Origin: Mustelus asterias
Taxonomy: Eukaryota
Length of the DNA stretch: 64,000 bases
Assembly: GCF_964213995.1 (NCBI RefSeq)
Contig: NW_027590213.1
Location: forward strand, 310,001 to 374,000
Direction: 5' to 3'
The notes under the pieces were generated by a model. The model was not told where the DNA came from and did no database searches. It saw only the letters and a list, made by a program, of their open reading frames with translations. Position 1 is the first letter of the stretch, and every line of letters starts with the position of its first letter. Below, one piece after another: positions 5,169-63,895 of this stretch. The position numbers were made by a program, and so were the translations under genes.

Positions 5169-5499
5169 AACTTCCAGGCGATGGTGATTCCAATGTGGCT
5201 GCTGGCCCTGGCCTTCAAGAAGGTAGAGCTCGTGGGATTTAAAATACTGTCGAGGGAGGTTTGAGAAGTGGCGACAATGCATGTTTTTCTGTACACATGG
5301 CAGGTTTCAGCTGTCTTCTGTCTCAGTAATGATCAACTTCCGCACCTCATTTCTCCTGGTTAATTTTGTGTAAGGTTATCATCTCGAAATCGTTGGGGAT
5401 TCCAGCCCAATCCCACTGCTCCAATGACAAAACTGAGGAACTTATACAATCTCACACATCCACTTTTGGATATGATACAAAATAGTTTGTCTTCTCTGT

Positions 5500-6866
5500 T
5501 AGTCTAACCTCAGTGGTTGGTAAGTTGATGGAGAGGATCCTGAGAGACAGGATTTATGATCATCTAGAGAAGTTTAGTATGATCAAAAGTAGTCAGCACG
5601 GCTTTGTCAAGGGCAGGTCGTGCCTTACGAGCCTGGTTGAGTTCTTTGAAAATGTGACCAAACACATTGACGAAGGAAGAGCGGTGGATGTGGTCTATAT
5701 GGACTTCAGCAAGGCGTTCGATAAGGTCCCCCATGCAAGACTTCTTGAGAAAGTGAGAGGGCATGGGATCCAAGGGGCTGTTGCCTTGTGGATCCAGAAC
5801 TGGCTTGCCTGCAGAAGGCAGAGAGTGGCTGTGGAGAGGTCTTTCTCTGCATGGAGGTCAGTGACCAGTGGAGTGCCCCAGGGATCTGTTCTGGGACCCT
5901 TGCTGTTTGTCATTTTCATAAATGACCTGGATGAGGAAGTGGAGGGATGGGTTGGTAAGTTTGCTGACGACACCAAGGTAGGTGGTGTTGTGGATAGTTT
6001 GGAGGGATGTCAGAAGTTGCAGCGAGACATAGATAGAATGCAAGACTGGGCGGAGAAGTGGCAGATGGACTTCAACCCGGATAAGTGTGTAGTGATCCAT
6101 TTTGGCAGATCCAATGGGATGAAGCAGCAGTATAATATGAAGGGTACCATTCTTAGCAGTGTAGAGGATCAGAAGGACCTTGGGGTCCGGGTCGATAGGA
6201 CTCTTAAATCGGCCTCGCAGGTGGAGGATGCGGTCAAGAAGGCGTACGGCGTACTGGCCTTCATTAATCGAGGGATTGAGTTTAGGAGTCAGGAGATAAT
6301 GCTGCAGCTTTATAGGACCCTGGTTAGACCCCACTTGGAGTACTGCGCGCAGTTCTGGTCACCTCATTACAGGAAAGATGTTGAAGCCATTGAAAGGGTG
6401 CAGAGGAGATTTACAAGGATGTTGCCTGGATTGGGGGGCATGCCTTATGAGGATAGGTTGAGGGAGCTTGGTCTCTTCTCCCTGGAGAGACGAAGGATGA
6501 GAGGTGACCTGATAGAGGTTTACAAGATGTTGAGAGGTCTGGATAGGGTAGACTCTCAGAGGCTATTTCCAAGGGCTGAAATGGTTGCTACAAGAGGATA
6601 CAGGTTTAAGGTGCTGGGGGGTAGGTACAGAGGAGATGTCAGGGGTAAGTTTTTCACTCAGAGGGTGGTGGGTGAGTGGAATCGGCTGACGTCGGTGGTG
6701 GTGGAGGCAAACTCGTTGGGGTCTTTTACGAGACTTCTGGATGAGTACATGGGATTTAATGGGATTGAGGGCTATAGATAGGCCTAGAGGTAGGGATATG
6801 ATCAGCGCAACTTGTGGGCCGAAGGGCCTGTTTGTGCTGTGGCTTTCTATGTTCTATGTTCTATGT
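5500..6866 (+). mobile_element. 5'-truncated young CR1 LINE with open RT ORF
   Basis: ORF 5513-6781 with [21 protein letters not shown] and FADD motifs; (TTCTATG)n tail at ~6844-6866. Confidence 0.95.
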
Positions 6867-7899: not shown

Positions 7900-10800
7900 A
7901 GAACATAGAACATAGAAAAACTACAGCACAAATAGGCCCTTCGGCCCACAAGTTGCGCCGGTCATGTCCCTACCTACCTTGGCCTATATATAGGCTTACC
8001 TACAACCCTCAATCCTATTAAGTCCCATGTACTCATCCAGAAGTCTCTTAAAAGACCCTATCGAGCTTGCCTCCACCACCATTGACGGCAGCCGATTCCA
8101 CTCACCCACCATCCTCTGAGTGAAAAACTTACCCCTGACATCTCCTCTGTACCTGCTCCCCAGCAGCTTAAACCTGTGTCCTCTCGTAGCAGCCATTTCA
8201 GCCCTGGGAAAAAGCCTCTGAGAATCCACCCGATCTATACCTCTCAACATCTTGTACACCTTTATCAGGTCACCTCTCATCCTTCGTCTCTCCAACGAGA
8301 AAATACCGAGCTCTCTCCACCTATCCTCATAAGGCATGCCAGCCAATCCAGGCAACATCCTTGTAAATCTTCTGCGCACCCTTTCAATAATTTCTACATC
8401 TGACGAGGGTCTTATAAAACTGCATCATTATCTCCCGTCTCCTAAACTCAATCCCTCAAGTGATGTAGGCCAGCACACCATACGCCTTCTTAACCACCTC
8501 CTCTACCTGTGAGGCCGATTTAAGAGCCCTATGGACCCGGACTCCAAGGTCCTTCTGAGCCTCTACACTGCTAAGAGTCTTACCCTTGATATTATACTCC
8601 TTCATTCCATTTGACCTGCCAAAGTGTACCAATACACATTTATCCGGGTTGAAGTCCATCTGCCACTTCTCCGCCCAGTCTTGCATCCTATCTATGTCAC
8701 ACTGCAGCTTCTGACGTCCCTCCAAACTATCCACAACACCACCAACCTTCGTGTCGTCGGCAAACTTACCAACCCATCCCTCCACTTCCTCATCCAGGTC
8801 ATTTATGAAAATGACAAACAGCAAGGGTCCCAGAACAGATCTCTGGGGCACTCCACTGGTGACCGACCTCCATTCAGAAAAAGACCTATCTACAACCACT
8901 CTCTGCCTTCTGCAGGCAAGCCAGTTCTGGATCCACAAGGCAACAGCCCCTTGGATCCCATGCCCTCTCACTTTCTCAAGAAGTCTTGCATGGGGGACCT
9001 TATCGAACGCCTTGCTGAAGTCCATGTAAACTACATCTACCGCTTTTCCTTCGTCAACGTGTTTAGTCACATTTTCAAAGAACTCCACCAGGCTCGTAAG
9101 GCACGATTTGCCTTTGACAAAGCCGTGCTGACTACTTCTGAGCATACTAAACTTCTCTAAATGTTCATAAATCCTGTCCCTCAGGATCTTCTCCATCAAC
9201 TTACCAAACACTGAGGTTAGACTCGCCGGTCGGTAATTTCGTGGTCTATCCCTATTCCCTTTCTTGAATATAGGAACCACATCTACAATCCTCCAATCCT
9301 CCGGAACCTCTCGCGTCTCCATCGACGACGCAAAGATCATCGACAGAGGCTCTGCAATCTCTTCCCTCGCCTCCCACGGTAACCTGGGGTACATCCCATC
9401 CGGTCCCGGCGACTTATCTAACTTGATTTTATTCAAAATTTCCAACACATCTTCTTTCTTAATGTCGACAAACTCAATCTTCTCAGTCCGCCGCAATCCT
9501 GTAGTACAACCACCCAGGTCTTTTTCCACCGTGAATACCGAGGTAAAGCATTCATTAAGCACCTCTGCTATTTCTTCCGGTTCCATACAGACTTTCTCAC
9601 CTTCAGCTTTTATAGGTTCTATTCCTTCACATCTCATCCTTTAACTCTTCACATATTTATAGAACGCCTTAAGGTTCTCCTTAATCTTACCTGCCAAGGC
9701 CTTCTCGTGACCCCTTCTGGCTCTCCTAATTTCCTTCTTCAGTCCCTTCCTACAAGCCGTATACTCATCTAGATCCCCATCATCGCCAACTCTCTGAACC
9801 TATTGTACGCTTTCCTTTTCCTTTTGACTAGGTTCAGCATAGCTTTCGTGCACCACGGTTCCCGTAACCTACCAAAATCTCCCTGTCTCATCGGAACGTT
9901 GTGATGTCGAACTCCAGACAAACATTCCTTGAAAATCTGCCACCTTACTTCGGTACTTTCCCTCGAGAGTACCTCCTTCAAATTTATGTCGCTTATCTCC
10001 TGCCTGATGGCTTCATATTTCCCCTTACTCCAAATAAACACTTTCCTAGCTTGCCTGATCCTATCTCTTTCCAATGTTAGCATAAAGGAGATAGAGTTAT
10101 GATCACTATCCCCAAGATGCTCCCCCACTGAGAGATCCGACACCTGTCCAGGCTCATTAGCCAGTACCAGATCGAGTACAGCCTCTCCTCTTGTCGGCTT
10201 ATCCACATGCTGTGTCAGGAAACCCTCCTGTACACAACTCACAAACTCCTCCCCATCCAAGCCCCTTACCCTAGGGATATTCCAATCAATGTTTGGGAAA
10301 TTAAACTCTCCCAACACGACAACCGTTATTCCTACATCTCTCCAGGATCTGTTTCCCTATCTGCTCCTCAGCAGCCCTGTCACTATTGGGCGGCCTATAG
10401 AAAACATCCAGCAAAGTTATCGACCCCTTCCCGCTCCGAACTTCCACCCACAGAGACTCCGTAGACAACCCCTCCACGGCGTCCACCTTCTCTACAGCTG
10501 TGACAATATCCCTGATCAGCAGTGCCACTCCCCCCGCTCTTCTGCCTCCCTCTCTGCCCTTTCTGAAACATCTGAAACCCGGCACCTGAAGTGTCCAGTC
10601 CTGTCCCTGTCCCCAAGTCTCCGTAATGGCCACCACATCACACTTCCAAGCATCGATCCACACTCTAAGCTCATCCACTTTATTTACTACACTCCTGGCA
10701 TTAAAATAGACATATCTCAAACCATTGGTCTGAGCTCTCCCGTTCTCTATCACCCGTCTATTCTCCCTCTTCCGCTGTCTACAATCCCTCTCTATTTGTG

Positions 10801-15454: not shown

Positions 15455-15493
15455 GATTTTTGTACAGGGCTGGGTGTGATCTATATCACTGTG
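15455..15493 (-). other. 23-RSS of the IgH-like V
   Basis: CACAGTG + 23 nt + ACAAAAATC. Confidence 0.95.
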
Positions 15494-15969
15494 CCGTTGT
15501 GCACAGTGATATGTAGAGCTGCCTCCCATTGTTAAAGTCCTAATAGAGAGCACGAATACACTGTTGGAAAGGTATTTGGTTGCAGTGATTCGTTCACCAA
15601 ACTCCGGATTGTAATTCTTGCTATTTTCATTGTAGTACCAAAGGAGCCAGCCCGGTCCCTTCCCGAGACTGTGTCGGTACCAAAGCATGGTGTATCTCCC
15701 AAGATCAAATCCACTGGTTTTACAGGTTAGGGTCAGGGTTTGCCCGACTATCCCTATCTCTGCCTCTGGCTGGATCAACACCACATCCGACTGGACGCCT
15801 GCTAACCGAAAGAAACAATAATTATGGTGAGGTGAATCCAGTTTGTGTCACGCCACAGGGAATGATTAATGTTAAACAGAGACTATGGGAGCTTTCTGAG
15901 AATATCCAACTACTCACAGGATAAGAAGCCAATAAACAGACCGAGAGATATTGCTAGCGCCATGCTCAT
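15494..15969 (-). CDS. IgH-like V gene segment (TAILV-like), open reading frame. Leader exon 15918-15969, V exon 15494-15798.
   Basis: Spliced: MSMALAISLGLFIGFLS|CVQSDVVLIQPEAEIGIVGQTLTLTCKTSGFDLGRYTMLWYRHSLGKGPGWLLWYYNENSKNYNPEFGERITATKYLSNSVFVLSIRTLTMGGSSTYHCAQR. GTGAGT donor, CAG acceptor, phase 1. FR1 resembles shark VH (DVVLxQPEAE..LTCKTSGF). Confidence 0.9.
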
Positions 15970-17643: not shown

Positions 17644-17682
17644 GTTTTTTTTACAAATCTGGGGCTGACCCGCCTCACTGTG
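17644..17682 (-). other. 23-RSS of the V pseudogene
   Basis: CACAGTG + 23 nt + AAAAAAAAC. Confidence 0.85.
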
Positions 17683-18438
17683 TTAACTGTGTACTCTAAT
17701 AAGCAGCTGTTTCCTCCATCGTCAGAAACCTGACATCCAAAGCAAATATATTGTGTGCAAGCTCTTTGGAAACAGTGAATCGTCCTCGAGTCTCCCCACA
17801 GTATCAATGGAAGTCTTCATCATAGTAGGAAACTAGCCAGTCTGACATCTTTCAGGTACCATGACAGTACCAGTACAGCCAATAGCCACTGAAGTCGAAG
17901 CCGCTGGTATTGCAGGTCAGGGACAGGGACTACACTGGGAACCACTTCTCTGCCTCTGGCTGCGTCAGAACTACTTCCGACTGGACACCTGTTAAAGTCA
18001 AAGAGACATCCATTATTGTGATGGGCGGATCGGTGGCACAGTGGTTTTTATTCCAGGCCTGAGTACTATCTGTGTGGAGTTTAGACGTTCTCCCCGTGCC
18101 TGCGTGGGTTTCCTCTGAATGCTCCAATTTCCTTCCACAGTCCAAAGATATGCACGCTAGGTGGATTTATCATGCTAACGTGTTCCTAAATATCGGTAGA
18201 TGTCTCGATTAGGTGATTAGCAGGGGTTACGGGGACATGGCAGAGTGGGCCTGGGTGCAAACTCAATGGTGAAATAGCCTCCTTCTCACTGTAGGGATTC
18301 TATGATGATTCCTTCCCCTGTAACACACCATTGAAAGGTGAGGTTCTGCAAACACACACAGCAGGAATTTGGGGAAATGTCAAGCAGCTCACTGCAGAAG
18401 GAACCCTCCAATAGTCCGAGTAACATTGTTAACCTCAT
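17683..18438 (-). pseudogene. IgH-like V pseudogene, paralog of 15494-15969. Leader 18393-18438, V exon 17683-17988.
   Basis: MRLTMLLGLLEGSFC|SVQSEVVLTQPEAEKWFPV*SLSLTCNTSGFDFSGYWLYWYCHGT*KMSDWLVSYYDEDFH*YCGETRGRFTVSKELAHNIFALDVRFLTMEETAAY*S. Four in-frame stops and the second canonical Cys is lost. Confidence 0.88.
18020..18305 (+). mobile_element. HE1-like V-SINE in the leader intron of the V pseudogene
   Basis: GGTGGCACAGTGG head and V-SINE core TGTGTGGAGTTT..GTTCTCCCCGTG..TGCGTGGGTTTCCTC. Confidence 0.75.
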
Positions 18439-20124: not shown

Positions 20125-20163
20125 AGTTTACGTAGAGGCTGCTGCCTGGAATGTGCGAGTGTG
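20125..20163 (-). other. Degenerate 23-RSS
   Basis: CACACTC + 23 nt + ACGTAAACT directly after the V exon. Confidence 0.7.
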
Positions 20164-21238
20164 TGTGTTTAAGATGCAGAAGTATTTCCTGGAGTCCTCA
20201 GCTGTCACCGGTGCAACTGTCAGACTGATGATTCTGTAAGTTTTGCTCAGGGAGGAGGAAAAGCGACGCCTGGAAAATGTGGCGCTGTCACTGAAACCAT
20301 CGGTGCAGCGGACGACAATATACTCGGGACTTCCCCCCATGGCTGGGTGGAGAGGTTCCCGGTACCAGACCAAGCAAGCTCTCTCCACCTCTGTGTATGA
20401 GCAGGTGATTGTCGTGGTGGCTCCCTGTTGGACCCTCACCTCTGCCTCCGGCTGGTGGATGACTGCGGATGCAGCCAGGCTACCTGAAGGATAGAGAAAA
20501 TTAGAATTAAGTGGAGGTTCCAGGCACTCTATCGATTTGAAACTGGGGAGCTGCGGGGGAGGGGGAGGATGGGGTGTGCCCAATGGAGGTTGGCCCCAGT
20601 TCCCACTGCCTTTTCTCACTACTGAAGCTTTTAAATAACTATTTGTAAAATTCCAATCATTAAATAAACTCAGTCACCAGTAATGTTGCTGTGTACTTAT
20701 CTCGAAAGATCAACATTAAATATAAGAATATAAAATAATTTATTGAAAGGAAATCAATGAGAATAACTAAATTAAGTTGATTTATCAGTGTCACAAGTGG
20801 GCTTACATTAACACTGCAATGAAGTTACTGTCGCCACGCTCCAGCGCCTGTTCTATTACACTGAGGGAGAGAATAGCACGGCCAATGCACCTAATCAGCA
20901 CATGTTTCGGACTGCAGGAGGAAAACATAGCACCCGGAGGAAACTCACGCAGACATGGGGGGAACGTGCAGACTCTGCACAGTGACCCAAGCCGGTAATC
21001 GAATCCGGGTCCCTGGCGCTGTGAGGCAGCAGTGCTAAACATTGTGCCAAAATGCCGCCCCTAATAATTAATTAAATCCAACCACTGCGAATATTGCTCT
21101 ACTTTTTCTCTAAAAGCAACATTAAATGTGGAAGAATAAAAGGCTTTCTTGAGAGGTAATCAATGAGAATGTGAAGTGTAACTCACCTGATATGATTGCT
21201 GCTAGAATGAAAGCTTTTAACCCTCGTGGGCGATCCAT
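20164..21238 (-). CDS. TCR alpha/delta-type V gene segment, open, with two non-canonical Cys. Leader 21187-21238, V exon 20164-20483.
   Basis: MDRPRGLKAFILAAIIS|GSLAASAVIHQPEAEVRVQQGATTTITCSYTEVERACLVWYREPLHPAMGGSPEYIVVRCTDGFSDSATFSRRRFSSSLSKTYRIISLTVAPVTAEDSRKYFCILN; phase-1 GTGAGT/CAG splice sites. Confidence 0.85.
20775..21062 (-). mobile_element. Full-length V-SINE (tRNA-derived head) in the leader intron
   Basis: Minus strand starts GGGCGGCATTTTGGCACAATGTTTAGCACTGCTGCCTCACAGCGCCAGGGACCCGGATTCGATT, followed by the V-core. Confidence 0.8.
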
Positions 21239-26517: not shown

Positions 26518-26739
26518 GTTTTCAGCACATCTCTCTCCATGTTCTGTATCACTGTGTCTGTAATCCTCACCATGTTCAGGTTTTTGTGCAGCTCTCTCCT
26601 TGTTCTGTATCACTGTGTCTGTAATCCTCACCATGTTCAGGTTTTTGTACAGCTCTCTCCGTGTTCTGCATCACTGTGTCTGTAATCCTCACCATGTTCA
26701 GGTTTTTGTACAGCTCTCTCCGTGTTCTGTATCACTGTG
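26518..26739 (-). repeat. 61-bp tandem repeat of the 23-RSS
   Basis: Heptamers CACAGTG at 26733-39, 26672-78, 26611-17 and 26550-56. Perfect nonamers ACAAAAACC at 26701-09, 26640-48 and 26579-87, each 23 nt from its heptamer. The fourth nonamer is degenerate (GCTGAAAAC). Confidence 0.95.
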
Positions 26740-27045
26740 CTATGTGCCGACTCAGTCCACAGTAATAGACAGCCGAGTCGCTTAGCTGCAGTTTGGAGAT
26801 CTTTAACCGGCTGATTTTCTGGACAGAATCGATAGAAGCAGAAATTCTCTCCCCGGCAGCGTTTTCTTTATTGCCCCCTCCTGAAGTGTGTTTCTGCAGC
26901 AAGTATTTCAGAGTCTGCCCTGGGGGCTGGCTGTACCAGTGTACTGTGTACTGACAGATTCCTGAATATTCACAGCTTAATGTAACCGTGTCACCAGCAG
27001 CAGAGGTTTGTAGAGGCGGATTCTTGGATACCAGGGAAGAGGAAC
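26740..27045 (-). CDS. TRDV: NAR-TCR supporting V-delta segment (leaderless, CDR1 Cys), open
   Basis: Acceptor TTTCTAATCCTGCAG, then (G)SSSLVSKNPPLQTSAAGDTVTLSCEYSGICQYTVHWYSQPPGQTLKYLLQKHTSGGGNKENAAGERISASIDSVQKISRLKISKLQLSDSAVYYCGLSRHI. Absent from the ORF track because it has no start codon. Confidence 0.9.
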
Positions 27046-27244
27046 CTGCAGGATTAGAAAAAAAAGCGTTTGTTTAGGTTTTGCCATTTTTTAGTCGGAG
27101 ATTGTGTCAGTCGCAGGAGTAGCTCAGTTTTATGCGGAGTTATTATTATTTTAATTCTAATGGAACGATATTGACTTACGCTATAAACCAGTGTACAGTG
27201 AGGTGACATTTTATTTTGCACAAGTTCTAATGATCTGTAACGAT

Positions 27245-27700
27245 GTTATTAAACTGGAGGGAGTGCAGAAGAGATTTACAAGGATGTTGCCAGGACTCAA
27301 GGGACTGAGTTATAGGGAGAGTTTGGACTTTTTCCTTTGGTGCGTAGGAGATAGAGGGGTGATCTTATAGAAGTGTATAAGATCATGACAGGCACGGATA
27401 GGGCGAATGAACTCAGTCTTATTTCCAGGGTTTGGGAGTCGAGAGCAAGAGGGAATAGGGAAAGAAGTAACCTGCAGAGCAACTTTTTTTTACACAGAGG
27501 TGGTACGTATGTGGAATGAGCTGCCGGAGGGAGTGGTTGAGGCAGGGACATTGTCAACATTTAAAAGGCATTTGGACAGATACATGGATAGGAAAGGTTT
27601 AGAGAGATATGGGCCAAATGCAGGCGAATGGCTGAGCTTCGACGGACATTTTGATCGGCATGGATCAGTTTGGATCTGCCGTAAATTCTGTGAATCTATG
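27245..27700 (+). mobile_element. CR1 3' fragment
   Basis: LEGVQKRFTRMLPGL..GDLIEVYK-like coding remnant; ORF 27407-27718. Confidence 0.8.
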
Positions 27701-29269
27701 AATACACTGTCAGCTTAGTAGGAGCTGGTTCAACAGTGAATTATGAATGAGCAATGATCACATACCTGAACAGGAAAACAACAGGTTTATGGGGAAAATT
27801 CATGGCTCGTGGAAGAATTGGATTTCGTTTATAAAGTGGCAGCATCTACCCGAGGGGCCGAATGTCCCCCTCCCACGCTAACTTATTCTATGATATATGT
27901 TAGGTTTTAGTTTCTATTTTCCTTTTTGAGAGGGATATTGAAGGGAACATTTTATTATCAGTGACGCAATCCTTTTCTGGAGATGATTGCCAAAGAACAA
28001 CCCAGCTGCGTCACATCACAGCGCACAGCAAGATCCAACAGAGTGATTGTGATTCATCAGCTCCGATGGGGCCGAACCATGTTGACCATCGGTGGCCAAA
28101 TGTCATTTATATATTTCAGTTTAACACCTCCCGGGAGTCAATGTTTGCTTTTTAATCTATTTCTTTTCTATCTATTGGTATAATTTTTCTCCCCTTCTCT
28201 TTATATTGAGATATCTAGTCAGTTTCATTTCATTTACTTTGTGCTGTTTGGTTTTCCTGAGTCGTGGGAACGCGTCCCAAAGTCTCGTAGTTGTCAGTTG
28301 CGTTCATCCTGTTCAGTTTCCGCAGTGGTTTTACTGTTACTCACTGGGAACTGCCTCTTTTGGATCTCTCACAATTTCATTTTTTTCTGCTCATTAACTG
28401 ATTCTCTCCCGGGTTCGCTGGGCAGAGTTTTCTCTAAATTGTACATTGTATAGAAACTCCTGTTCCACATTTCAAAGCTGCTCCATCACTCAGTTATGTT
28501 GCAGCTTATCTCCTGTGTCGACCACATTTGCCCTGACCATTTTAGTGTACAAATATGTAACAAACGCTGCCTTGAATGCGTTCAACATTAACTATCCACG
28601 GCTCTCTGTGGTCTGGAATTCGCAGATTCACCACAATGGCTTTGACTGAAGAAATGTCTCCTCTCCGCAGTCCAAATTGCTGAACCGTTATTCTGAAAAT
28701 GTGACCCCAAATTATAGACTTCCCAGATTGGAAAAACTACCACCCAGAATCTGCCTTTCACGCCCTTTGAGAATATAATAAATTCTGCTGAGATCACTCC
28801 TCACTCCTCTAATATCAGTCGAGGGAAAATAGGCAATGGGTCTTCAATCACTTCTCAAAGGACAATCATTTTATCCCAAGACTCTGTTTAGTGAATATTA
28901 GTTAAATTCCCTCCGAAGTATGTACATCCTTCCAAACTAAAGGAGATCAAATCTCACATAGTATTCCAGGTCAGTTCGAATCTCCGCAAATCTCGTTTTC
29001 AATCCTTGAGTTTTATTGTATTTTCAGTATTCTCCAGAAATAATAATCCAATCTTTCTCTCCATGTCGATTAATTCTCTATCACTTGTTCTAAATGAATA
29101 TTCCCTTCACAATTGTTTTCTATTGTTCCTGTTCTCCTTGATACAATTACCACATCATCCTCCTCTCTTACTGCATTGTGCGATTTCAGTTAACACTAAT
29201 CAGGGCTACAAATGCATTACAGCAATCGCCCACAAACAACCATCACAAATCCGGTATGTCCTGACCCAT

Positions 29270-30225
29270 TGGCAGGACAGACTCAGCAGAGCTGGCGGCA
29301 CGATATTGTCGGGAGCGACTTGCCCTGGGAGTCCACAATACCGTCTCTGGACCGCATGAAGTCTCATGACATCAGGTCAGACATGGGCAAGGAAGCGGCC
29401 TGCTGATTACCATGTGCCTCTGCTGATATATCTATACTCCTCCATGTTGAACAACATCTGGATGAAGCACTGAGGATGTCAAGCGTGCATAACGTATACT
29501 GGTTAGGGGGCTTCAATATCTATCACCACGACTGGCTCGGTAGCACATAGCTGGACATAACTGCCAGACTGGGACTGCGGCAGGTAGCGAGGAAACTACC
29601 AATAGGGAATAAAGCATATTTGACCTCAGCCTCAGCAACCTTACTGCCGCAGGTGCATCGCCAGAGAAGTATCAGTAGGAGTGACCACATGCAGTCCATG
29701 TGGACACAATTTATTGTCTTCACATTGAGCTTCACTCCATCGTGTAGTATGGCACAGTCGCCGTGCTAAATCAGATAGTTTTTGAGCAGATCCAGCAACT
29801 CATCACTAGGCATCCATGACGCACTATGGGCCATCAGCAGCAGCAGATTTTCACTCAAACACAATCTGTAACCTCATGGTCCGGCATGTCCCCTGCATTG
29901 ACATTAGCAAACGAGGGATTAACACTGGTTCAATGAAGACTGCAGGAGGCAATGCCGGCAGCAACACCAGACATCCCTATAACTGATTTGTCAATCCGGT
30001 GAAGATAAAGCTGAAGCCTTGGCAACAATCCTCATCCAGAGATATCGAGTGGATGATCCATCTCAATCTCCTCCGGAGGTCCCCAGCATCACTGATGTCA
30101 GTTTTCATCCAATTTGATTCACTCCACGTGACTTCAGGACCGGCTGAAGGCACAGGATGCTGCAAAGGCTATGGGCTCTGGAAATATCCCGGCAATTTAC
30201 TGAAGACCTGTGCTCCAGAATTAAC
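29270..30225 (+). mobile_element. Degenerate LINE (L2/CR1-like) endonuclease-region remnant
   Basis: GGFN..HHDWL, SDH and WFN-like remnants across frames. Confidence 0.45.
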
Positions 30226-30992
30226 CACTAACGGTGGAAAATGAGAAAAAGTTATTGTTTATAAGGAGGATATTTAAGGAAATATCAGATACAATGTCAC
30301 TAATTTCAGTCACTGATTTCTTTATTACAAAATTCCTTCGGACCTACAACAAGGTCCCTTATACCTGAAGCCCGTGGTTTAATTTTCTGTTTGTCTCCCG
30401 GGTCAGGTATTGAGTGAGTCACTGCGGTTAAATGGACTGGCCGCAGTGACATCGATCTCATTCAGCTGGTAGCTTCTTGACATTGCACGGCTAGGACTGC
30501 AATCTACTGCCCAGGAGAGAGCTCTGAGACCCCGCTGCCGTGTTGTAAGCGACAGATAAACCTCTCCCAGTCACATTTCACATCCAGAGTGGATTCCGGG
30601 GTGTTGTCAATTTGAGTTTGTTAAAAAAAAACTCCCAGGAGTGTCAGAGTTCTTGATGTTGATGTGCCTCTTAAAACAATCGCCCAGATTCTGTCAACTC
30701 TCACAGAACACTGAACCGCACCCAGCGCCTCACCACCACCCCCACCCACAAGCCTCACCCCATTATCCCTGCCCCGCTGACCACCGACTCCATCAGGTCT
30801 CACAGACACTTTCCCCCGGCCTGACCTGGACCCGACTCCAAAATCACATCCTGTTCCCAACTCGAAATCTGTAACGGATGATTTTCCATAGGAAGATTCG
30901 ATTGGATTGAAACGAGACAGATCACAATGATAAAGTGAAGGGGAACATTAAACGAGACAGTCTGTAACACGGCGGGGTTTGGAGTCACTTAC

Positions 30993-31051
30993 CGGCTGTG
31001 ACAGTCACCACCGTCCCGGATCCATCCACATAATCATATTTCCGTTTAGTA
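30993..31051 (-). CDS. NAR-TCR J segment
   Basis: TKRKYDYVDGSGTVVTVTA followed by a phase-1 donor GTAAGT (30987-30992); xGxG-TxxTV J motif. Confidence 0.92.
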
Positions 31052-31090
31052 CACAGTGGCACCTCTCTCAGTCTCCCCGGTACAAGAACC
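31052..31090 (-). other. 23-RSS 5' of J
   Basis: GGTTCTTGT + 23 nt + CACTGTG on the minus strand. Confidence 0.92.
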
Positions 31091-31401
31091 ACCGACATCT
31101 CAATCTGCCGGGAAACCATCACCAGTCAATCGGAAGTGTCCAATTATTCGGGGGATTTAAAATTAATAAACAAGATTCAACGTTTCAACGTCTCTGTCGG
31201 TTCAAATTGTACTTTGTGAGGCCCAAGCTCTCAGTAAATGGCCGCAGGGAGGAAATATTAACTTCATATATAGCAAAAAAAATCAAAGAAAGATGTGAGT
31301 GGTGGAGATTACAATAGAAGTAATCCAGATTACAGCGAAAATATCGTCAAACCAATGATTCACTGTCCGGGCCCTGAGAATTTGTACTGTAATTGTGCAC
31401 A

Positions 31402-31472
31402 GGTATTTGCTCAGCTTCCTTCCACTGTGACTCTCCCAAAGTTACACAGTGTTACAATTCAGCATCAAAATA
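31402..31472 (-). other. NAR-TCR D segment (31430-31444, TAACTTTGGGAGAGT) flanked by two 12-RSS
   Basis: Plus strand: GGTATTTGC-12-CACTGTG-[15 nt]-CACAGTG-12-ATCAAAATA. Confidence 0.88.
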
Positions 31473-31832
31473 TCGGGTACTGGGTGGAATGTTGGAACAT
31501 GAATTAAACCGCGCGGAATGTGGCTCCCAGCTCCGGCTGTGAGCCCAGGATCCCATCTGGTGTGTGGGTTTGTAACTGGGATCAATCATTCCCATTCTCC
31601 ATTCACCGACAACACTCCCAGGAAAGACACCACCATTCACTCACACTCCGTGTTTATAAAACTCGAAGTGTCAACGATAATAATCAGGTCCCGTTAAAAA
31701 CTAAACTGTGGCACCGAGAGTGTGAGGTGCAATTGTCGGGGTGGCGGTGGGGGGGAGGCGCGGGACGGGGGGCGGTGTTCAGGGCAGATTAACTCCGGTT
31801 TTTCATTTGGTTCTGAGAGAATCTGCAGGGAG

Positions 31833-31870
31833 AGTTTTTGTATCGCTGGATGCCGAGGCCCATCACGGTG
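31833..31870 (-). other. RSS of NAR-TCR V (22-nt spacer)
   Basis: CACCGTG + 22 nt + ACAAAAACT. Confidence 0.9.
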
Positions 31871-32337
31871 TGCCAGTACCAGTAATGAGCTTTACAGTAA
31901 TAGGTGGCGGTGTCTTCAACTCTCACATCCCGAATTTCCAGCGAAAATGTCTTTTCTGCTTTGTTCACAGACACAACAAATCTCCCTCCGCTGGAGATCC
32001 GCTCCCACTCCGTCCCGGTCTGGGTTTGTCTGAAGAAATGTCCATTTTCTAAGTGATAACCATGTAAAACACAGGTGATGGTGAGAGACTGACACTTCTT
32101 CCTGGTCACCGCTGCCGGGCTCTGTGTCACTGACTGACTGAAACATCCTGGAAATTAAACACAGAGAGTTTATTGGACCATCAGAGCCGAACCGCACAAC
32201 GGGGCTAAAACCCAGACAGTGTCTGCAATTGGGATGGACTGGGGCAGCTTTATATTCAATCCACACAATGTAGTTTAGTGCGATTAGTACTCACGGTGTA
32301 AACAGACACACAGACTGAAAACAAGAAGGATTCCCAT
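31871..32337 (-). CDS. NAR-TCR V (IgNAR-like V), open. Leader 32295-32337, V exon 31871-32147.
   Basis: MGILLVFSLCVCLH|RCFSQSVTQSPAAVTRKKCQSLTITCVLHGYHLENGHFFRQTQTGTEWERISSGGRFVVSVNKAEKTFSLEIRDVRVEDTATYYCKAHYWYW. VNAR-type CDR2 deletion (ERISSGGRFVVSVN), extra FR1 Cys, and its own D and J downstream. Confidence 0.93.
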
Positions 32338-40899: not shown

Positions 40900-41380
40900 T
40901 GCTGTATCACTGTGTAATCCAACAATTAATCCAGTTCCCCTGGATTCCTGCTCTGTAACATATCACTGTGTAATCCAACAATTAATCCAGTTCCCCTGGA
41001 TTACTGCTCTGTAACATATCACTGTGTAATCTAACAATTAAAGCAGTTTTCCTACATTAATGCTCTGTATCACTTCACTGTGTGATCTAACAATTAATCC
41101 AGTTCTCCTGATTTATGTTTCCCTGTATCAATGTGTAATGGAACCCACTCCTGATACCGTGATCACACAAACACGGTGAGGGAGCTCCCTCTGGTGGTGA
41201 TCTGAGGTAAATGGCCTCTGCTTGGGAGATCAGTGAATTCTCAGACTACTGGAGGATCTTTCTTGTTGCAGGATTACGCTGCTGTATTTTTCTTAGGAAT
41301 AAGAAAAATACGCTCTGTAACATATCACTGTGTAATCCAACAATTACTCCAGTTCTCCTGGATTACTGCTCTGTAACATA
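40900..41380. repeat. 56-bp minisatellite
   Basis: CACTGTG-containing unit starts at 40908, 40964, 41020 and 41076, with an isolated copy at 41326. Confidence 0.8.
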
Positions 41381-42270: not shown

Positions 42271-43155
42271 CTAGAACATAGAACATTACAGCGCAGTACA
42301 GGCCCTTCGGCCCTCGATGTTGCGCCGACCAGTGGACCCAATCTAAAGCCCATCTAACCTACACTATTCCCATATCATCCTTATGTTTATCCAATGACCA
42401 TTTAAATGATTGATTGGTTTCTAGATGTTGAAAATATCAAGGGATATGGGTTTAGTGTGGGGAGAATGATGCTGAGGTAGATGAATGAATTATCTCATTG
42501 AATAGTTTAAAAGGCTCGATGAGCCAAATGGCCGACTGCAACTCCTCGTTGTCATGGTCTCTGTGTCCAGGACAGGAAGCAGTGAGCATGGATCTGTCAA
42601 TCAGCCTCAATCAGCACCTTCAGGAGAATTGGGAGGGTGAATATTAGATACAGCAGAGTGAGAATGGAGGGAGAGTGTGTGGGATGGAGATTTACAGCTT
42701 TTGAGGAATGGGAGAGGAAAGAATGTTCCATAGAAACTAGAATTGTCTTTTCTGAATTTCTATCCTGTCCTGACAATGATGACTTTTGTAAACTTGTTTT
42801 ACAGGATATTGAAAGAGGAATCACAGGCCGAAATCTCAAACGTCACGTCGAGATCTGACATAGTCATATTCCTTGGGAGCTGAATATCATCGTCCTTTGA
42901 ATCTAGAAAGAGAAATTGTTGTCCAGTCTGTTGATTTGAAAAGATTTCAAACATCAGTGTGACTGGAAAAGCAGCAACACACTGCCACACTCGAGTGAGT
43001 GTGTTCCAATACACTGACTAAAGAGCTTTAACCAGTTACACAGCCTGAATAAATATCACACCATTCACAGCAGGGAGAGACTGTACCCGTGTTCTGTGTG
43101 TGGACGAGGCTTCAACTGATTGTCCACCCAAGAGAGAGGCAAGGACACCTGCACC

Positions 43156-44250
43156 ATGGAGAAACCATGGAAATGTGCGGACTGTGGGAAGAGATACAGA
43201 TACCCAACTGAGCTGGAAGCTCATCGGCGCAGCCACACTGGGGAGAGACCATTCACGTGCTCTCAGTGTGGGAAGGGATTCACTCAGTCATTCAACCTGC
43301 AGAGACACCAGCGAGTTCACACTGGGGAGAGGCCGTTCACCTGCTCTCAGTGTGGGGAGGGATTCACTTCTTCATCCCACCTGCGGAGGCACCAGCGAGT
43401 TCACACTGGAGAGGGGCCGTTCACCTGCTCTCAGTGTGGGGAGGGATTCACTTCTTCATCCTACCTGCGGAGGCACCAGCGAGTTCACACTGGGGAGAGG
43501 CCGTTCACCTGCTCTCAGTGTGGGAAGGGATTCACTCGGTCATCCAGCCTGCGGACACACGAGCGAGTTCATACTGGGGAGAGGCCGTTCACGTGTTCTC
43601 AGTGTGGGGAGGGATTCACTCGGTCATTCAGCCTGCGGGCACACGAGCGAGTTCACACTGGGGAGAGGCCATGCACCTGCTCTCAGTGTGGGAAGGGATT
43701 CTGTGACTCATCCCGCCTGCTGAGACACCAGCAAGTTCACACTGGGGAGAGGCCGTTCACCTGCTCTCAATGTGAGAAGAGATTCACTCGATTATCCAGC
43801 CTGCTGAGACACCAGCGAGTTCACACTGGAGAGAAGCCGTTCACCTGCTCTGTTTGTGGGAAGGGATTCAGTCAATCATCTAACCTGCAGAGACACACGC
43901 AAGTTCACACTGGGGAGAAACCGTTCATCTGCTTTCATTGTGGGAAAGGATTCACTCTGTCTTCGAACCTGCGGACACACCAGCGAGTTCACACTGGAGA
44001 GAGGCCGTTCACTTGCTCTGTGTGTGGGAAGGGATTCACTCAGTTATCCACCCTTCAGTCACACCAACGTGTTCACACTGGGGAGAGACCATTCACCTGC
44101 TCTGTATGTGAGAAGGGATTCACTCAGTTATCTGCCCTGCAGTCACACCAGCGAGTTCACACTGGGGAGAAACCATTCACCTGCTCTGAGTGTGGGAAGG
44201 GATTCAGTGTTTTATCCACCCTGCACAGACACCAGCAAGTTCACGAGTGA
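43156..44250 (+). CDS. Tandem C2H2 zinc-finger protein, 13 fingers
   Basis: [10 protein letters not shown].. followed by repeated HTGE(R/K)PFTC linkers; CACCATGG start context; acceptor TTTTACAG at ~42804. Confidence 0.85.
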
Positions 44251-51458: not shown

Positions 51459-54400
51459 TCAAATTAAAATGTGGTTATTAGGGTCAATAATGCACCCCAA
51501 CCCCTGCGGTGCCCAGCGGGCGCGGAAAGCGTCAACCTCGCCCGTGGACACCGCATGCTCCCTCTCCAGGGACACCTGGCCGCGAACGTAGCCGCGGTAG
51601 AGGGGAAGACAGTCAGGATGGACGGCCCCCTCGATCGCCCGCTGCCTGGACCGGTAAATGGCGCGTTTCGCCAGGCCCAGGAGCAGGTTCACGAGGAGGT
51701 CGCCATCCCGACCCTCCCCTCTCCGCACCGGGTGTCCGTAGATCAGGAGCGTGGGACTGAAGTGTAAACAAAACATCAATAAAAGGTTCTTCAGGAAAAC
51801 ATAAAGGGAGTGCAGCCTAAGACACTCAACATAGACATGGTCCACGGACTCCACAAGGCCACAGAAAGGGCAGTCTTCGGAGCCCGTGAACCAGTGAATC
51901 CTACGGTTGTGCGGAACTGCTGCATGCATCACCCTCCACCCCAGGTCCCCGACGTAATTGGGGGAGATCCCTCCGTAGAGGGACCTCCAGCGGGGACCTC
52001 CGCCGCCCGGCGGCAACAAGGCCCGCCAAGGTGTATCCGGGCGACAGGCGAGGAGGCGGTAGTGGAGGGTGTGCAGCAGCAGCCCGCATGGGAAACGCCT
52101 CCGCGCGGTAGAAAAAGGCACGGAGGGCATTTCCGTGAGGCGGCTCAGGCTGTGGGGTACCTCACCCAGGGGAGGGGGCTGAGGCTTTGGGCCAATGTGG
52201 AATTCCGCCCGAACAGGGGAACGCTCGGGCGGGATCCCACCGCACGCCTGCGCCGTCTCAAGTTTGCGTGCAGTTTCGGGGCCGAGCACGACCGTCCTAA
52301 GGTCTAGGATGGCTTTGGCCGCGCGCCGGACGGACGTCCCCGCGCGCTCAGCCAGCACGCGGGGACTCATCCAGCCCGCTCCTCCGCCATCGAGCACGTC
52401 CCCGATTCTGGTCACCCCGGCGTCCACAGCCCCCCTCTCCGCCAGCCACCTGAAGTTATACGGCTGGAGGAGCGGATTCCTGAGCAGCGGCTCTCGCACG
52501 AGAGCCGCTACTCCTGACGGGGGAGAGCTGCGTCGCGAGGCGACCTTGTTCCAGACAGTGAGGAGGTCCTGGTAAAAGACGGGCAACTCCTGCAGGGCGG
52601 TCGAAGCACGCCCCAGTTCGATATGCAGGAGCTGCACGTCATAATTGAGGCCGTGCCACTGGCGGAAGAAATACGTCGCCATGGCACACCATTGTGGAGG
52701 GGGCTCAACGTAAAGGTACCTCTGCAGGGCCTGGAGGCGGAAGGTCGCTATCTGAGTGCGGAGGCACACCAGACCTTGTCCGCCCTCCTCAAGCGGGAGA
52801 TACAGGACCGCAGCAGGGACCCAGTGCAGTCGATTGCCCCAGAAGAACCGCACGAGGGTTCTCTGGATATCGGTGACAAAGCCAGGGGGAGGGGTCAAAG
52901 GGACCAGCCGGTACCACAGCATGGAGGCGACCAGCTGGTTTATGACGCGAGCTCGCGCCCCGTAGGACAGCACTCGGAGCAGTCCTGTCCAGCGACCCAG
53001 GCGGGCGGAGACTTTGGCCTCCAGCTCCCGCCAGTTCGCCGGCCAGGATTCCTCGGCTGGGCAGAGATGGGCCCCCAAGTAGAGGAGGTCGGTCCTGCTC
53101 CAGGTGAAAGGCCTGAGCTCCTCCGGGAGGGGGTCCGTCTCCCAAGGACCGACAAGGAGTCCGGAGCACTTGGCCCAGTTGATCCTGGCGGAGGACGCGG
53201 CGGAGTACACCGCCTGGCATTCTCGCATCCTCCGCAGGTCAGCCGGGTCCGTGAACATGAGGAGCACGTCGTCGGCGTAAGCTGACAGGACCACCCCTAC
53301 GTCCGGTCCGCGCAGGACCAAACCTGACAACCTCCTCCGCAAGAGGCGCAGGAATGGCTCCACGCATACGGAATACAGTTGGCCGGACAAGGGGCAGCCC
53401 TGCCGTACTCCTCTCCCGAAGCGAAGGGGCGCCGTCAGGGACCCGTTAACCTTAATCAGACACTCTGCGGCAGAGTACAGTAATCGGATCCGGGCGACAA
53501 AATGCGTCCCGAACCCGAATGCCCGCAGAGTCCCGAGTAAATACTCGTGCTCCACCCTGTCGAACGCCTTCTCCTGATCTAATGACAAGAAGGCGCCCGA
53601 CAGACCAGCCCTCTGGGTGTGATGGATTAGGTCCCGGACCAGGTGGAGATTGTCATGTATGCAACGGCCCGGGACCGTGTAGGACTGGTCAGGGTGGATC
53701 AAGTGGTCCAGCACGGATCCAAGGCGTGAAGCCATAGCCCTGGCAAAGATTTTATAATCCGTGCTGAGGAGGGAGACCGGGCGCCAGTTCTTGAGCAGGT
53801 GGAGATCCCCCTTCTTGGGCAGCAGGGCAATGACGGCCCTGCGCCACGAAAGGGGCATCTCCCCGGTAGCGACGCTCTCCCCCAGGACCCCCGCGTAGTC
53901 GCTCCCCAGGACGTCCCAGAACGCCCTGAAGAACTCTACTGTCAGCCCGTCCAGCCCAGGGGCCTTGCCCCGGCTGAGGCCATTTAGGGCGCCGGTCAGC
54001 TCGGCCATGGTGGTAGGGGCCTCGAGCCTGCCGACGCCCTCCGGGCCGACCTGCGGCAGGTCCTCCCACAGAAGTCTGCGGGCATCCTCGCTGGACGGAT
54101 CCGGAGAGAAGAGCGAGGTGTAATACTCCCGGGCAATGGCCCGGATGCCCTCCGGATCCGAGACGGGGGAACCGTCGTCGGCCAGCAGCGTAAGGAGCTG
54201 CTGACGGTTAGCCCGCCCTCTTTCCAGCGAGTAGAAGAAGGGGGAGCCGCGGTCCAGGTCCACCTGGAACTGGAGCCGCGACCTCACGTACGCGCCGCGA
54301 GACCTGGCAAGCTGCAGGTCTCGCAGCGCGTCCTTCTTCTCCCTGTACTCCGAACGCAGGGCCGGGTCCGCGTCAGGCCGACTGAGACGTGCCTCCAGGT

Positions 54401-55352
54401 CGAGCACCTCCTTCTCCAACTCCTCGAGCCTGGATTTCCGCCTCTTTGTCGACCCCCTCGCGTACCCCTGACAGAAGGTACGGACGTGAGTCTTGCCCAC
54501 ATCCCACCAGAGCCTCAAGGAGGGGAAGCCTCCCCGCTTCCTTCTCCAGCCGGCCCAGAATCGACGGAACGAGTCCAGGAAGCGCTCGTCCTCCAGCAGC
54601 GTGTTGTTAAAGTGCCAGTACGCGGACCCCCGCCGGATGCGAGACGGCGCAAAGTCCGCCCACACCAGGCTGTGGTCCGTGCTCGACACCGGCCGCATGG
54701 AGACAGAGGACATGCCGGACACGTGCGCCTTCGAAATGTAAAGGCGGTCGAGCCTGGACGCTCCGACTCCAGGCCTCACGAAAGTGAAGGCGCTGGAGCC
54801 AGGATGGAGATGTCTCCAGACGTCCACCAAGTCGTGGGACCCGATCAGGTCCCGCAACTTCACCACCGCCAGAGTGCGCAGCCAGGGGCCGGTGCGGTCC
54901 CGTGCCTCGAGGAGGCAGTTGAAATCTCCCCCGAGGATAATGCATTCGCCCCCCGCGATGGTGTCGATGTGAGCGGACACTTTCTCGTAGAAAGTCGTTT
55001 GCTGCGGTCCAGCGGTCGGGGCGTAGACATTCAGCAAGTGAATGACCACGCCCCCCTCACGGACCGTCAAGTGCAGCAACCGGCCTGGCACCGGCTCCTT
55101 GACCCCCAAGATCTCCGGCTTATAATGCGGGGCCAACAAGATAGCCACCCCGCAAGAAGCGAGCGTGAGGTGGCTCATGTAGACCCCCCCTCGCCACTCC
55201 AGGAGCCATTGGGCTTCGTCTCCCGGAACGGTGTGGGTTTCCTGCAGGAAACACACCGCATACTTCCCGTCACGGAGGACCGAGAAGTTCTGGAACCTGC
55301 GGTGTGGCCCACTGCTGCCGTTGATGTTGAGGCTGGCTATGGTCACCTTCAT
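51459..55352 (-). CDS. Tx1 ORF2: APE endonuclease, reverse transcriptase, C-terminal CCHC (1297 aa, intact)
   Basis: LQETH, GGDFN, RLDR, STDH; RQGCPLS, YADD; CPFC..DHVYVEC. Confidence 0.95.
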   Translation of the reverse strand: MKVTIASLNINGSSGPHRRFQNFSVLRDGKYAVCFLQETHTVPGDEAQWLLEWRGGVYMSHLTLASCGVAILLAPHYKPEILGVKEPVPGRLLHLTVREGGVVIHLLNVYAPTAGPQQTTFYEKVSAHIDTIAGGECIILGGDFNCLLEARDRTGPWLRTLAVVKLRDLIGSHDLVDVWRHLHPGSSAFTFVRPGVGASRLDRLYISKAHVSGMSSVSMRPVSSTDHSLVWADFAPSRIRRGSAYWHFNNTLLEDERFLDSFRRFWAGWRRKRGGFPSLRLWWDVGKTHVRTFCQGYARGSTKRRKSRLEELEKEVLDLEARLSRPDADPALRSEYREKKDALRDLQLARSRGAYVRSRLQFQVDLDRGSPFFYSLERGRANRQQLLTLLADDGSPVSDPEGIRAIAREYYTSLFSPDPSSEDARRLLWEDLPQVGPEGVGRLEAPTTMAELTGALNGLSRGKAPGLDGLTVEFFRAFWDVLGSDYAGVLGESVATGEMPLSWRRAVIALLPKKGDLHLLKNWRPVSLLSTDYKIFARAMASRLGSVLDHLIHPDQSYTVPGRCIHDNLHLVRDLIHHTQRAGLSGAFLSLDQEKAFDRVEHEYLLGTLRAFGFGTHFVARIRLLYSAAECLIKVNGSLTAPLRFGRGVRQGCPLSGQLYSVCVEPFLRLLRRRLSGLVLRGPDVGVVLSAYADDVLLMFTDPADLRRMRECQAVYSAASSARINWAKCSGLLVGPWETDPLPEELRPFTWSRTDLLYLGAHLCPAEESWPANWRELEAKVSARLGRWTGLLRVLSYGARARVINQLVASMLWYRLVPLTPPPGFVTDIQRTLVRFFWGNRLHWVPAAVLYLPLEEGGQGLVCLRTQIATFRLQALQRYLYVEPPPQWCAMATYFFRQWHGLNYDVQLLHIELGRASTALQELPVFYQDLLTVWNKVASRRSSPPSGVAALVREPLLRNPLLQPYNFRWLAERGAVDAGVTRIGDVLDGGGAGWMSPRVLAERAGTSVRRAAKAILDLRTVVLGPETARKLETAQACGGIPPERSPVRAEFHIGPKPQPPPLGEVPHSLSRLTEMPSVPFSTARRRFPCGLLLHTLHYRLLACRPDTPWRALLPPGGGGPRWRSLYGGISPNYVGDLGWRVMHAAVPHNRRIHWFTGSEDCPFCGLVESVDHVYVECLRLHSLYVFLKNLLLMFCLHFSPTLLIYGHPVRRGEGRDGDLLVNLLLGLAKRAIYRSRQRAIEGAVHPDCLPLYRGYVRGQVSLEREHAVSTGEVDAFRARWAPQGLGCIIDPNNHILI

Positions 55353-55380
55353 GTCAGCAGCTTTGTGCCACCGTCACCAC

Positions 55381-62225: not shown

Positions 62226-62409
62226 TTCAAATACTGTTTGTCTGTTAATGCATGATTCATTGATGTTGATTTTAATTTGATTATTGCAAGATTTATTAGA
62301 AGGTGAAATCTTTCTCTTTGCTTTATTGCACTGGGTTTGTCTGGGAATGTTAATTTTAAGGTTATTGTACTCATAAGGATCATAACAACATTGATACATC
62401 TGGAGTTAT

Positions 62410-62852: not shown

Positions 62853-63304
62853 TAATGCAGGGAGAGTGTGGGACAGTTATTTACAGCTTTCGGGGAACAA
62901 GATAGAAATTAACAACTGCCAATTGTAGATTCTATCCTTAACTGACAGTGATGAAATTTATAACCTCTTTTACAGGATCTTCAAAGGGGGAGGATTTGCA
63001 GACACAAAATTCAAATCAAACATCAAGTGAAGAATTGACAGAGTCACTCGATTATCAGGATCTGAATATCATTAGCCTTTGAATCTTGAAGGAGAAATGT
63101 CTTTCTGTTCTGTTTGCTTCAGAAAGTTTTAAACATCAGTGTGACTGGAAAAGCAGCAAGACACAAACATCTGGGTGAGAGTGTTCCAGTGACAGTTACA
63201 TAGTTTGAAAGACCATCACCATTTACACCAGGAAGAGATTGTACAGACGCTTTGTGTGGCCACCTCGGCTGAACAACAAACCTGGAGACAGGGACACCCG
63301 CACC

Positions 63305-63895
63305 ATGGAGAAACCGTGGAAATGTGGGGATTGTGGGAAGGGATTCAAATCCCCGTCTCAGCTGGAAATTCATCGACGCAGTCACACTGGGGAGAGGCCG
63401 TTCACCTGCTCTGAGTGTGAGATGGGATTCAGTCGGTTATCTCACTTGCAGGCACACCAGCGAGTTCACACCGGGGAGAGGCCGTTCACCTGCTCTGATT
63501 GTGGAAAGGGATTCTCTCACTCCTCCAACCTGCGGATACACCAACGCGTTCACACTGGGGAGAGACCGTTCACCTGTACTCAGTGTGGGAAGGCATTCAT
63601 TGACTCATCAAGCCTGCGGATACACCAACGAGTTCACACCAAAGAGAGACCGTTTACCTGCTCCGAGTGTGGAAAGGGATTCAGTCGGTCATCCTTCCTG
63701 AAGGCACACCAGCGGATTCACACTGGGGAGTGGCCACCCACCTGCTCTGAGTGTGGGAAAGCATTCATTGATTCATCCAGCCTGCAGATACACCAGCGTC
63801 TTCACACTGCGGAGAGGACATTCACCTGCTCTGAGTGTGGGAAGAGATTCAGTCGGTCAACCTACCTGCGCAACCACCAGCGAGTTCACAAGTGA
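63305..63895 (+). CDS. Tandem C2H2 zinc-finger protein, 7 fingers
   Basis: [10 protein letters not shown].. with HTGERPFTC linkers; acceptor TTTTACAG at ~62975. Confidence 0.82.

Follow-up and report, generated by a model that had tools for sequence, protein, structure and literature searches.

The window analysed here is a stretch of 64,000 nucleotides from the houndshark Mustelus asterias (contig NW_027590213.1, hereafter C181, positions 310001-374000), and it carries on its minus strand a germline cassette of the NAR-TCR type (NAR, new antigen receptor; TCR, T-cell receptor), in which a NAR V segment with its own D and J is followed by a second, leaderless V-delta segment, the supporting V. 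NAR-TCR, reportedly described by Criscitiello in 2006, is the doubly rearranging TCR-delta of cartilaginous fish. The segments were delimited by reading the minus strand, scanning it for recombination signal sequences (RSSs) and translating the window letters, and they are, from 5' to 3' of the cassette:

32295..32337, minus strand: leader exon of the NAR-TCR V (MGILLVFSLCVCLH), with a phase-1 GT donor (translation)
31871..32147, minus strand: NAR-TCR V exon, open, with a Cys in the a-b loop (RKKCQ) and a Phe replacing the canonical Trp (GHFFRQ)
31833..31870, minus strand: RSS of the NAR V, with heptamer CACCGTG, a 22-nt spacer and a nonamer with 1 mismatch (RSS scan)
31445..31472, minus strand: 5' 12-RSS of the NAR D, with a perfect heptamer and a weak nonamer (4/9 mismatches)
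31430..31444, minus strand: NAR D segment of 15 nt, open on translation in two of its three forward frames
31402..31429, minus strand: 3' 12-RSS of the NAR D, with a perfect heptamer and 2 mismatches in the nonamer (RSS scan)
31052..31090, minus strand: 23-RSS of the NAR J, 1 mismatch (RSS scan)
30993..31051, minus strand: NAR J segment (TKRKYDYVDGSGTVVTVTA), with a phase-1 GTAAGT donor (translation)
27046..30992, minus strand: predicted intron from J to the supporting V, 3,947 nt, containing high-copy repeat stretches
26740..27045, minus strand: supporting V-delta, leaderless and open, with a phase-1 CAG acceptor and a Cys in complementarity-determining region (CDR) 1 (SGICQY)
26518..26739, minus strand: 61-bp tandem array of 3.5 copies behind the supporting V (RSS scan)

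The leader and V exons are separated by an intron of 147 nt. The RSS scan and the translation bear out the positions that a first-pass annotation of the same letters had given for leader, V, D, J, intron and supporting V, as well as its claims that all parts are open and that the splice between J and the supporting V is in frame (VTVTA/GSSSLVSK); the use of this splice, from J to position 27045, in vivo is predicted from the sequence. Upstream of the supporting V, three ATG..GT leader candidates were found within 650 nt, none of them hydrophobic. Between 26501 and 32400 there are 6 RSSs with at most 2 mismatches, whereas 500 dinucleotide shuffles gave a mean of 0.012 and never more than 1, and the heptamer variant CACCGTG of the NAR V recurs in 9 of 12 unjoined top paralogs. 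The D had been called 12/12, which holds for the two perfect heptamers and the 12-nt spacers but less well for the 5' nonamer. Likewise, the supporting V does have the 23-RSS ascribed to it, although as a stack rather than as a single signal, the 61-bp array containing three perfect 23-RSSs (26739, 26678 and 26617) and, at 26556, one more whose nonamer has decayed. An in-frame stop after the first heptamer rules out a longer CDR3 made by way of the distal signals, so that an open join of the supporting V is possible only through the first RSS. Stacks of 2-5 RSSs lie behind 22 of 25 unjoined supporting V loci, two of these rows having read a neighbouring pseudo-copy.

The description of this copy as complete applies to the cassette but not to the rearranging gene, the D-delta, five J-delta and open C-delta of which share the strand of the cassette but follow it at a distance of 27-47 kb downstream, to the left of the window. 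The lack of a downstream C-delta, which the first-pass annotation had named as a sign against its NAR-TCR proposal, was thus not encountered. The unit measures 53 kb between its ATG and its stop and comprises the NAR V-D-J, the supporting V, three more V, a D-delta, five J-delta and a C-delta, the parts behind the cassette being:

20161..20483, minus strand: diverged open V-like exon belonging to the repeated unit; no RSS found
17644..17990, minus strand: IgHV-like pseudogene (stops) with a 23-RSS
15455..15790, minus strand: IgHV-like V (TAILV-type), open, with a 23-RSS, part of the repeated unit
contig C181 309581-309565, minus strand: D-delta, 12/23
contig C181 309315 to 300425, minus strand: five J-delta, one with an upstream stop and no RSS called
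contig C181 292964-289329, minus strand: C-delta, three coding C exons

The V-like exon at 20161-20483 has an extra Cys, is only 30% identical to the nearest row of the tree described below, and is conserved at 89-100% in another four units that were inspected. The constant region is of the delta type, because the C exon of its paralog P0029 matched human TRDC (E 1e-11) better than TRAC (2e-4), because it carries CLXXXFXP, given as the trdc signature in PMC10322711, and because the NCBI description carried by P0061, a relative from catshark, is that of a model marked TCRD in Table S1 of PMC12227049. No J-alpha-like motif was found in the 29 kb downstream of this C-delta. These data suggest, with a probability of about 0.8, that an unrearranged and open NAR-TCR cassette heads here a self-contained 53-kb delta unit, one of 19 in the assembly, which is predicted to encode a three-domain delta chain after two RAG rearrangements.

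Both V domains of the cassette matched V-set, and the best solved-structure relatives of the first one are VNARs, the V domains of IgNAR (PDB 7spo, 2ywy and others). This match, together with a resemblance of the NAR J to IgNAR J, is what could be said for reading the V-D-J as an IgNAR cluster with an unrelated V-delta as its neighbour. Nevertheless, the marks described for NAR-TCR, i.e. a first V with a leader, a Cys in the a-b loop and no canonical Trp, and a leaderless second V with a CDR1 Cys (PMC1845163), are all present, and they separate the two families: the a-b-loop Cys is found in 21 of 23 NAR-TCR V and in none of 15 IgNAR V, and the Trp is replaced in all 23 of the former and present in all 15 of the latter. 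In agreement with this, a quick maximum-likelihood tree of 60 V-domain rows (P0019 left out; 3 of the 15 IgNAR V from this genome) placed the window V in the 23-row NAR-TCR V clade, apart from the IgNAR V, with an approximate likelihood ratio support (SH-aLRT) of 95 and a branch of 0.62, which is the grouping that the first-pass annotation had asked a phylogeny to check. The great-white protein P0008 (LOC121270138), 84% identical to the window NAR V, falls in the same clade and is labelled NARTCRdV in Table S1 of Flajnik et al. 2025 (PMC12227049). A search for longer relatives returned 57 matches among 101 candidates, all from sharks and one sawfish and 61-90% identical, and the same supporting V stood behind the NAR V in all 18 of them that were opened. 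The true IgNAR V of this genome are only about 50% identical to the NAR V and retain the Trp of the WYRK motif. Neither this Trp, nor the missing a-b-loop Cys, nor the VNAR grouping expected of an IgNAR member was found in the window copy. The first Ig-fold exon met past the NAR J is that of the supporting V, and the sole constant region found (with no IgNAR C among the queries) is C-delta; the pairing of NAR V and supporting V recurs in dozens of copies and in gene models from many sharks and from a sawfish. Taken together, the V grouping, the diagnostic residues, the own D and J with 12/23-compatible RSSs, the leaderless supporting V and the downstream delta D, J and C support the NAR-TCR architecture originally proposed and indicate that the cassette almost certainly belongs to NAR-TCR, whereas the IgNAR-cluster explanation is barely credible and, as far as the genomic data reach, refuted. 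Both extra Cys are present, and a disulfide bond between NAR V and supporting V, termed putative in PMC1845163, is likely.

By itself, the cassette represents a known system and is one of many V copies. Near-full-length NAR V were found at 55 or more loci at 66% identity or above, among 101 matches (150 of 657 candidates were scored, so that this is a lower bound), and most of them are followed, within a few kb, by a supporting V that matches. The constant region proved to be multiplied as well. All 40 candidates for C-delta first exons were scored, and 19 were retained, accompanied by 19 transmembrane exons at matching places; all 19 C-delta are open and differ from each other, by 0.05-8.7% over exons plus introns, in three clades. 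Three of them lie on scaffold C71 at 7.14, 11.04 and 12.27 Mb, 1.2-3.9 Mb apart. Each C-delta has its own set of 3-5 J-delta, and the D-delta is free in 11 units; in 6 it has been joined to a V and in one to an IgH D1, and in the last it is past the contig end. A NAR V with its supporting V stands 13-58 kb upstream on the same strand in 15 of the 19 units, the four without a cassette being those on C401 (at the contig start), on C3311 (a short contig), on C71 at 11.04 Mb (a conventional V-D join) and on C138 (an IgH V-D1 join).

Such a picture might also arise from an ordinary cassette in a normal locus with a single C-delta, if the 19 copies were haplotigs or products of mis-assembly. In line with that, 16 of the 19 C-delta are on separate smaller, unplaced-looking contigs, and four, which differ from another copy by 0.05-0.24%, might represent alleles or duplicates made in assembly. 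Even so, 16 distinct sequences were left after copies differing by less than 0.3% had been merged, and because a diploid locus holds at most two alleles, there must be at least 8 C-delta loci, or 10 if all are real. Against haplotigs stand also the 3-8.7% that separate the three clades, the varying J sets and spacing of the units, and the copy controls, since RAG1 was single (in a stricter first look) and C-alpha had two copies that are only 74% alike. These two C-alpha copies each lie behind a J-alpha array (C546:138289-242098 with 143 motifs and C71:18370833-18431904 with 34, in the stretches read), and no C-delta was found before the first J-alpha in 75 kb on C71, or in 13 kb on C546, where there is an N gap. 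The multiple C-delta layout is thus very probably real, and haplotigs or mis-assembly are an improbable source of it. The layout is one of clusters, as in Ig or TCR-mu, in place of the one translocon that has been reported for TCR in sharks, and the delta unit was likely multiplied by recent segmental duplication. No report of a multi-copy C-delta in sharks was found in the literature searched, which did not include the primary NAR-TCR papers, and it may already have been reported.

Protein matches to the C region numbered 13, with 8 from M. asterias, 2 from Heptranchias and one each from three other sharks; a protein labelled M. asterias is 100% identical to one C exon of the assembly. Two of these models, P0062 and P0064, are labelled Heptranchias perlo and bear C-delta, one of them with a NAR J and a supporting V. 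From these models, the duplication of C-delta may recur in other sharks.

The window copy is fully split, and so are 7 of the 30 best NAR V loci; in another 18 the V and D are joined through a junction of a common type, 2 are D-J joined, 1 is inverted and 2 have no D or J in the stretch covered. The units on C119, C96 and C436 have one common junction between supporting V and D-delta while their C genes are 1.2-3.8% apart, which suggests that the join is older than the duplication of these diverged units. On C850, a V 99.5% like that of the C154 unit is joined to a D-J-C 99.9% like that of the C71 unit at 12.27 Mb, which makes it a join between units. At C122:393165-398935, a 5.77-kb inversion fused the NAR D to the supporting V and left a perfect signal joint at the first stacked RSS; this is a precise RAG event, an error that the 12/23 rule allows, and no C-delta was found on contig C122. 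Perfect signal joints occur at C122, C110 and C71, those of C110 and of C71 at 14.38 Mb being at the 12-RSS of D-delta.

The joined forms could alternatively be somatic rearrangements of lymphocytes in the sequenced tissue, in keeping with the single sighting of each of C850, C122, C401, C138, C90 and C71 at 11.04 Mb and of both signal joints at D-delta, and with the 99.9% likeness of C850 to an unjoined unit. This is hard to reconcile with a junction common to three diverged units, with the NAR V-D junction in 18 of 30 top paralogs, or with the near absence of untemplated bases, 0-2 in each of the seven junction rows accounted for (C401 and C71 at 11.04 Mb were outside the scoring, and C90 is unaccounted for and longer). 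Germline-joined shark Ig genes show similarly little TdT activity (PMC2193156). Moreover, the D-J junction of C173 was recovered in run X1 at a depth of 14.2, other contigs on the stretch having 35-60; X1 is possibly the assembly's own sample and its depth is not a share of cells, so that this lends weak support, and run X5, from another organism, showed a different D-J join at a depth of 4.7. We consider that most of the joins are probably germline and that a somatic origin of them is unlikely.

Other joints were observed in the course of this analysis. The units at C110:113681-114765 and C71:14376804 are 99.1% alike and both stop at the same D-delta 12-RSS, which is fused to a different 23-type RSS in each, and on C110 a neighbouring NAR V end is apparently fused to a J RSS, like a hybrid joint. 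In C71 14345000-14404999, which lies behind another cassette, no C-delta was found and the unit ends at the signal joint. At C138:218463-217700 an open IgH V and its D1 have been fused to a D-delta, behind which come J-delta and C-delta. Of 30 matches, 8 loci were opened, and in all 8 a D1 with this start precedes an RSS of its own and a JH; C138 looks like a fixed trans-rearrangement from Ig to TCR-delta. An IgNAR-like V at C71:2929793-2929480 is directly followed by a J-like motif and is apparently germline-joined. NAR-TCR cassettes also occur as convergent pairs, which measure about 11 kb and have one member V-D joined, at C71:16070095-16081414 and also on C153, C444 and C2349.

As to how the window unit would work, RAG would join NAR V, D and J under the 12/23 rule, for which the signals are present here and finished joins exist in paralogs. 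By way of the first 23-RSS of the supporting V, it would also join this V to D-delta (12/23) and J-delta (12), most simply within the same unit and with a deletion of about 27 kb; the join between supporting V and D-delta is found finished in four NAR-headed paralogs. A transcript starting from the NAR leader would then be spliced from NAR J to the supporting V and from J-delta to C-delta, all in phase 1. The NAR V would stand unpaired, with a likely disulfide, on the supporting V, which in the literature model pairs together with C-delta with TCR-gamma, the unpaired NAR V binding antigen (PMC3457774, PMC6795676). RAG would likely act on the delta units in germ cells too.

We think there is a good chance that this copy is used. 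It may instead be silent or decaying in a family of which only some units are used, as could be suspected from the weak 5' nonamer of D, a private E-to-K change, the pseudogene V and the J with an upstream stop and no RSS called in the same unit, and from the very recent age of the duplicates, which left little time to decay and makes open frames say little. The intactness of all frames, splice sites and heptamers, the open C-delta exons and the central A run retained in the D 5' nonamer make a silent copy the less probable case, though a real one.

Several of these observations weigh against the proposal of an intact, self-contained unit that is one of many. The D 5' nonamer has 4/9 mismatches here as against 2-3 in paralogs, which could be early decay, and the a-b loop reads KKCQ where most paralogs have KECQ. 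Support for this copy rearranging twice, splicing J to the supporting V and being expressed is genomic, and these steps are accordingly stated as predictions. The copy number comes from one assembly, in which most C-delta are on the smaller contigs and four have near-identical partners, as described above, and some junctions were seen once and could be somatic. Finally, the units are not sealed, as the C850 join shows, and many cassettes have no C-delta nearby, so that a single large locus that recombines throughout may still be how the region operates.

The cassette shares with the NAR-TCR described elsewhere (PMC1845163, PMC12227049, PMC5931798, PMC6795676) the leader-bearing NAR V with its a-b-loop Cys and without Trp, the own D and J, the leaderless supporting V-delta with its CDR1 Cys, the delta D, J and C downstream and an IgHV-like V beside D-delta. 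It differs in that the known ones lie in a translocon, the arrangement given for shark TCR genes in PMC12227049 and PMC6795676, whereas here there are 19 C-delta units, 15 of them headed by a cassette, and stacked RSSs. Table S1 of PMC12227049 has a single C-delta model for catshark and a single one for stingray; for great white and epaulette shark no model is given under that name, and it marks one great-white NAR-TCR model 'gj'. IgNAR V is alike in being a short V without the CDR2 region and is the sister group in the tree, but it is about 50% identical, keeps the Trp, has no a-b-loop Cys and splices to IgNAR constant exons. A second C-delta exists in frogs and birds.

The TCR-mu of marsupials and monotremes resembles the houndshark units in its three-domain, delta-derived chain and its repeated [V-D-J-supporting V-C] clusters (PMC7615758, PMC3457774), and also in a supporting V whose diversity is limited or pre-joined; among the houndshark units, the V-D-joined ones are similar to the platypus [V1-D-J1-V2-J2-C]. 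PMC7615758 calls TCR-mu the only TCR with a germline-joined V, and a germline-rearranged TCR has been claimed in catfish (PMC6170632). In contrast to the houndshark units, TCR-mu has an IgHV-like V, sits off the alpha/delta locus and has a fully joined Vj that arose most likely by retrotransposition, whereas the top V here is of the NAR type, the introns are kept and the joins are partial. The V stands apart from the IgHV-like rows of the tree and the C is of the delta type rather than C-mu; the likeness is convergent and does not mean membership. The germline-joined Ig miniclusters of sharks are likewise multi-cluster, with split and joined copies mixed and little TdT at the joints (PMC2193156), but they encode Ig H and L chains, whereas here the genes are TCR-delta, an IgH V-D1 is fused to D-delta-J-C on C138, and signal joints are retained.

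The evidence tilts slightly towards a wider interpretation, namely that a former translocon, the TCR-delta locus of the houndshark, has become an Ig-like multi-cluster system; it would have at least 8-10 C-delta units, the majority headed by NAR-TCR, and in it germ-cell RAG keeps fixing pre-joined genes, inter-cluster joins and an IgH-TCR-delta chimera. If so, it would be a living parallel to the origin of the mammalian TCR-mu clusters with their pre-joined supporting V. Many C-delta units would break the division by which shark TCR are translocons and only Ig are clusters, and it would have to be asked how a single T cell restricts itself to one delta chain. The related split and joined copies allow germline RAG events on TCR genes to be reconstructed base by base, and the joints show which RSS pairs RAG really uses here, wrong ones included (NAR D to supporting V). 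The setting weighs more than the cassette, which adds one member to a system known since 2006.

Elsewhere in the window, RSS-like matches at 675, 41082 and 45032 were dismissed on account of their 3 mismatches and the lack of an adjoining V, D or J. A 56-bp tandem repeat at 40905-41110 (minus strand), inside which the match at 41082 falls, contains the heptamer CACAGTG without a good nonamer or a gene segment. Upstream of the cassette there are C2H2 zinc-finger arrays on the plus strand at 43120-44250 and 63209-63895, the first recognized by Pfam and both by an 84-bp repeat. An open reading frame of 1,304 aa at 51459-55373 (minus strand) encodes an endonuclease and a reverse transcriptase of a LINE-type element, and further reverse-transcriptase fragments lie at 5486-6781, 8456-9640 and 61032-62405.

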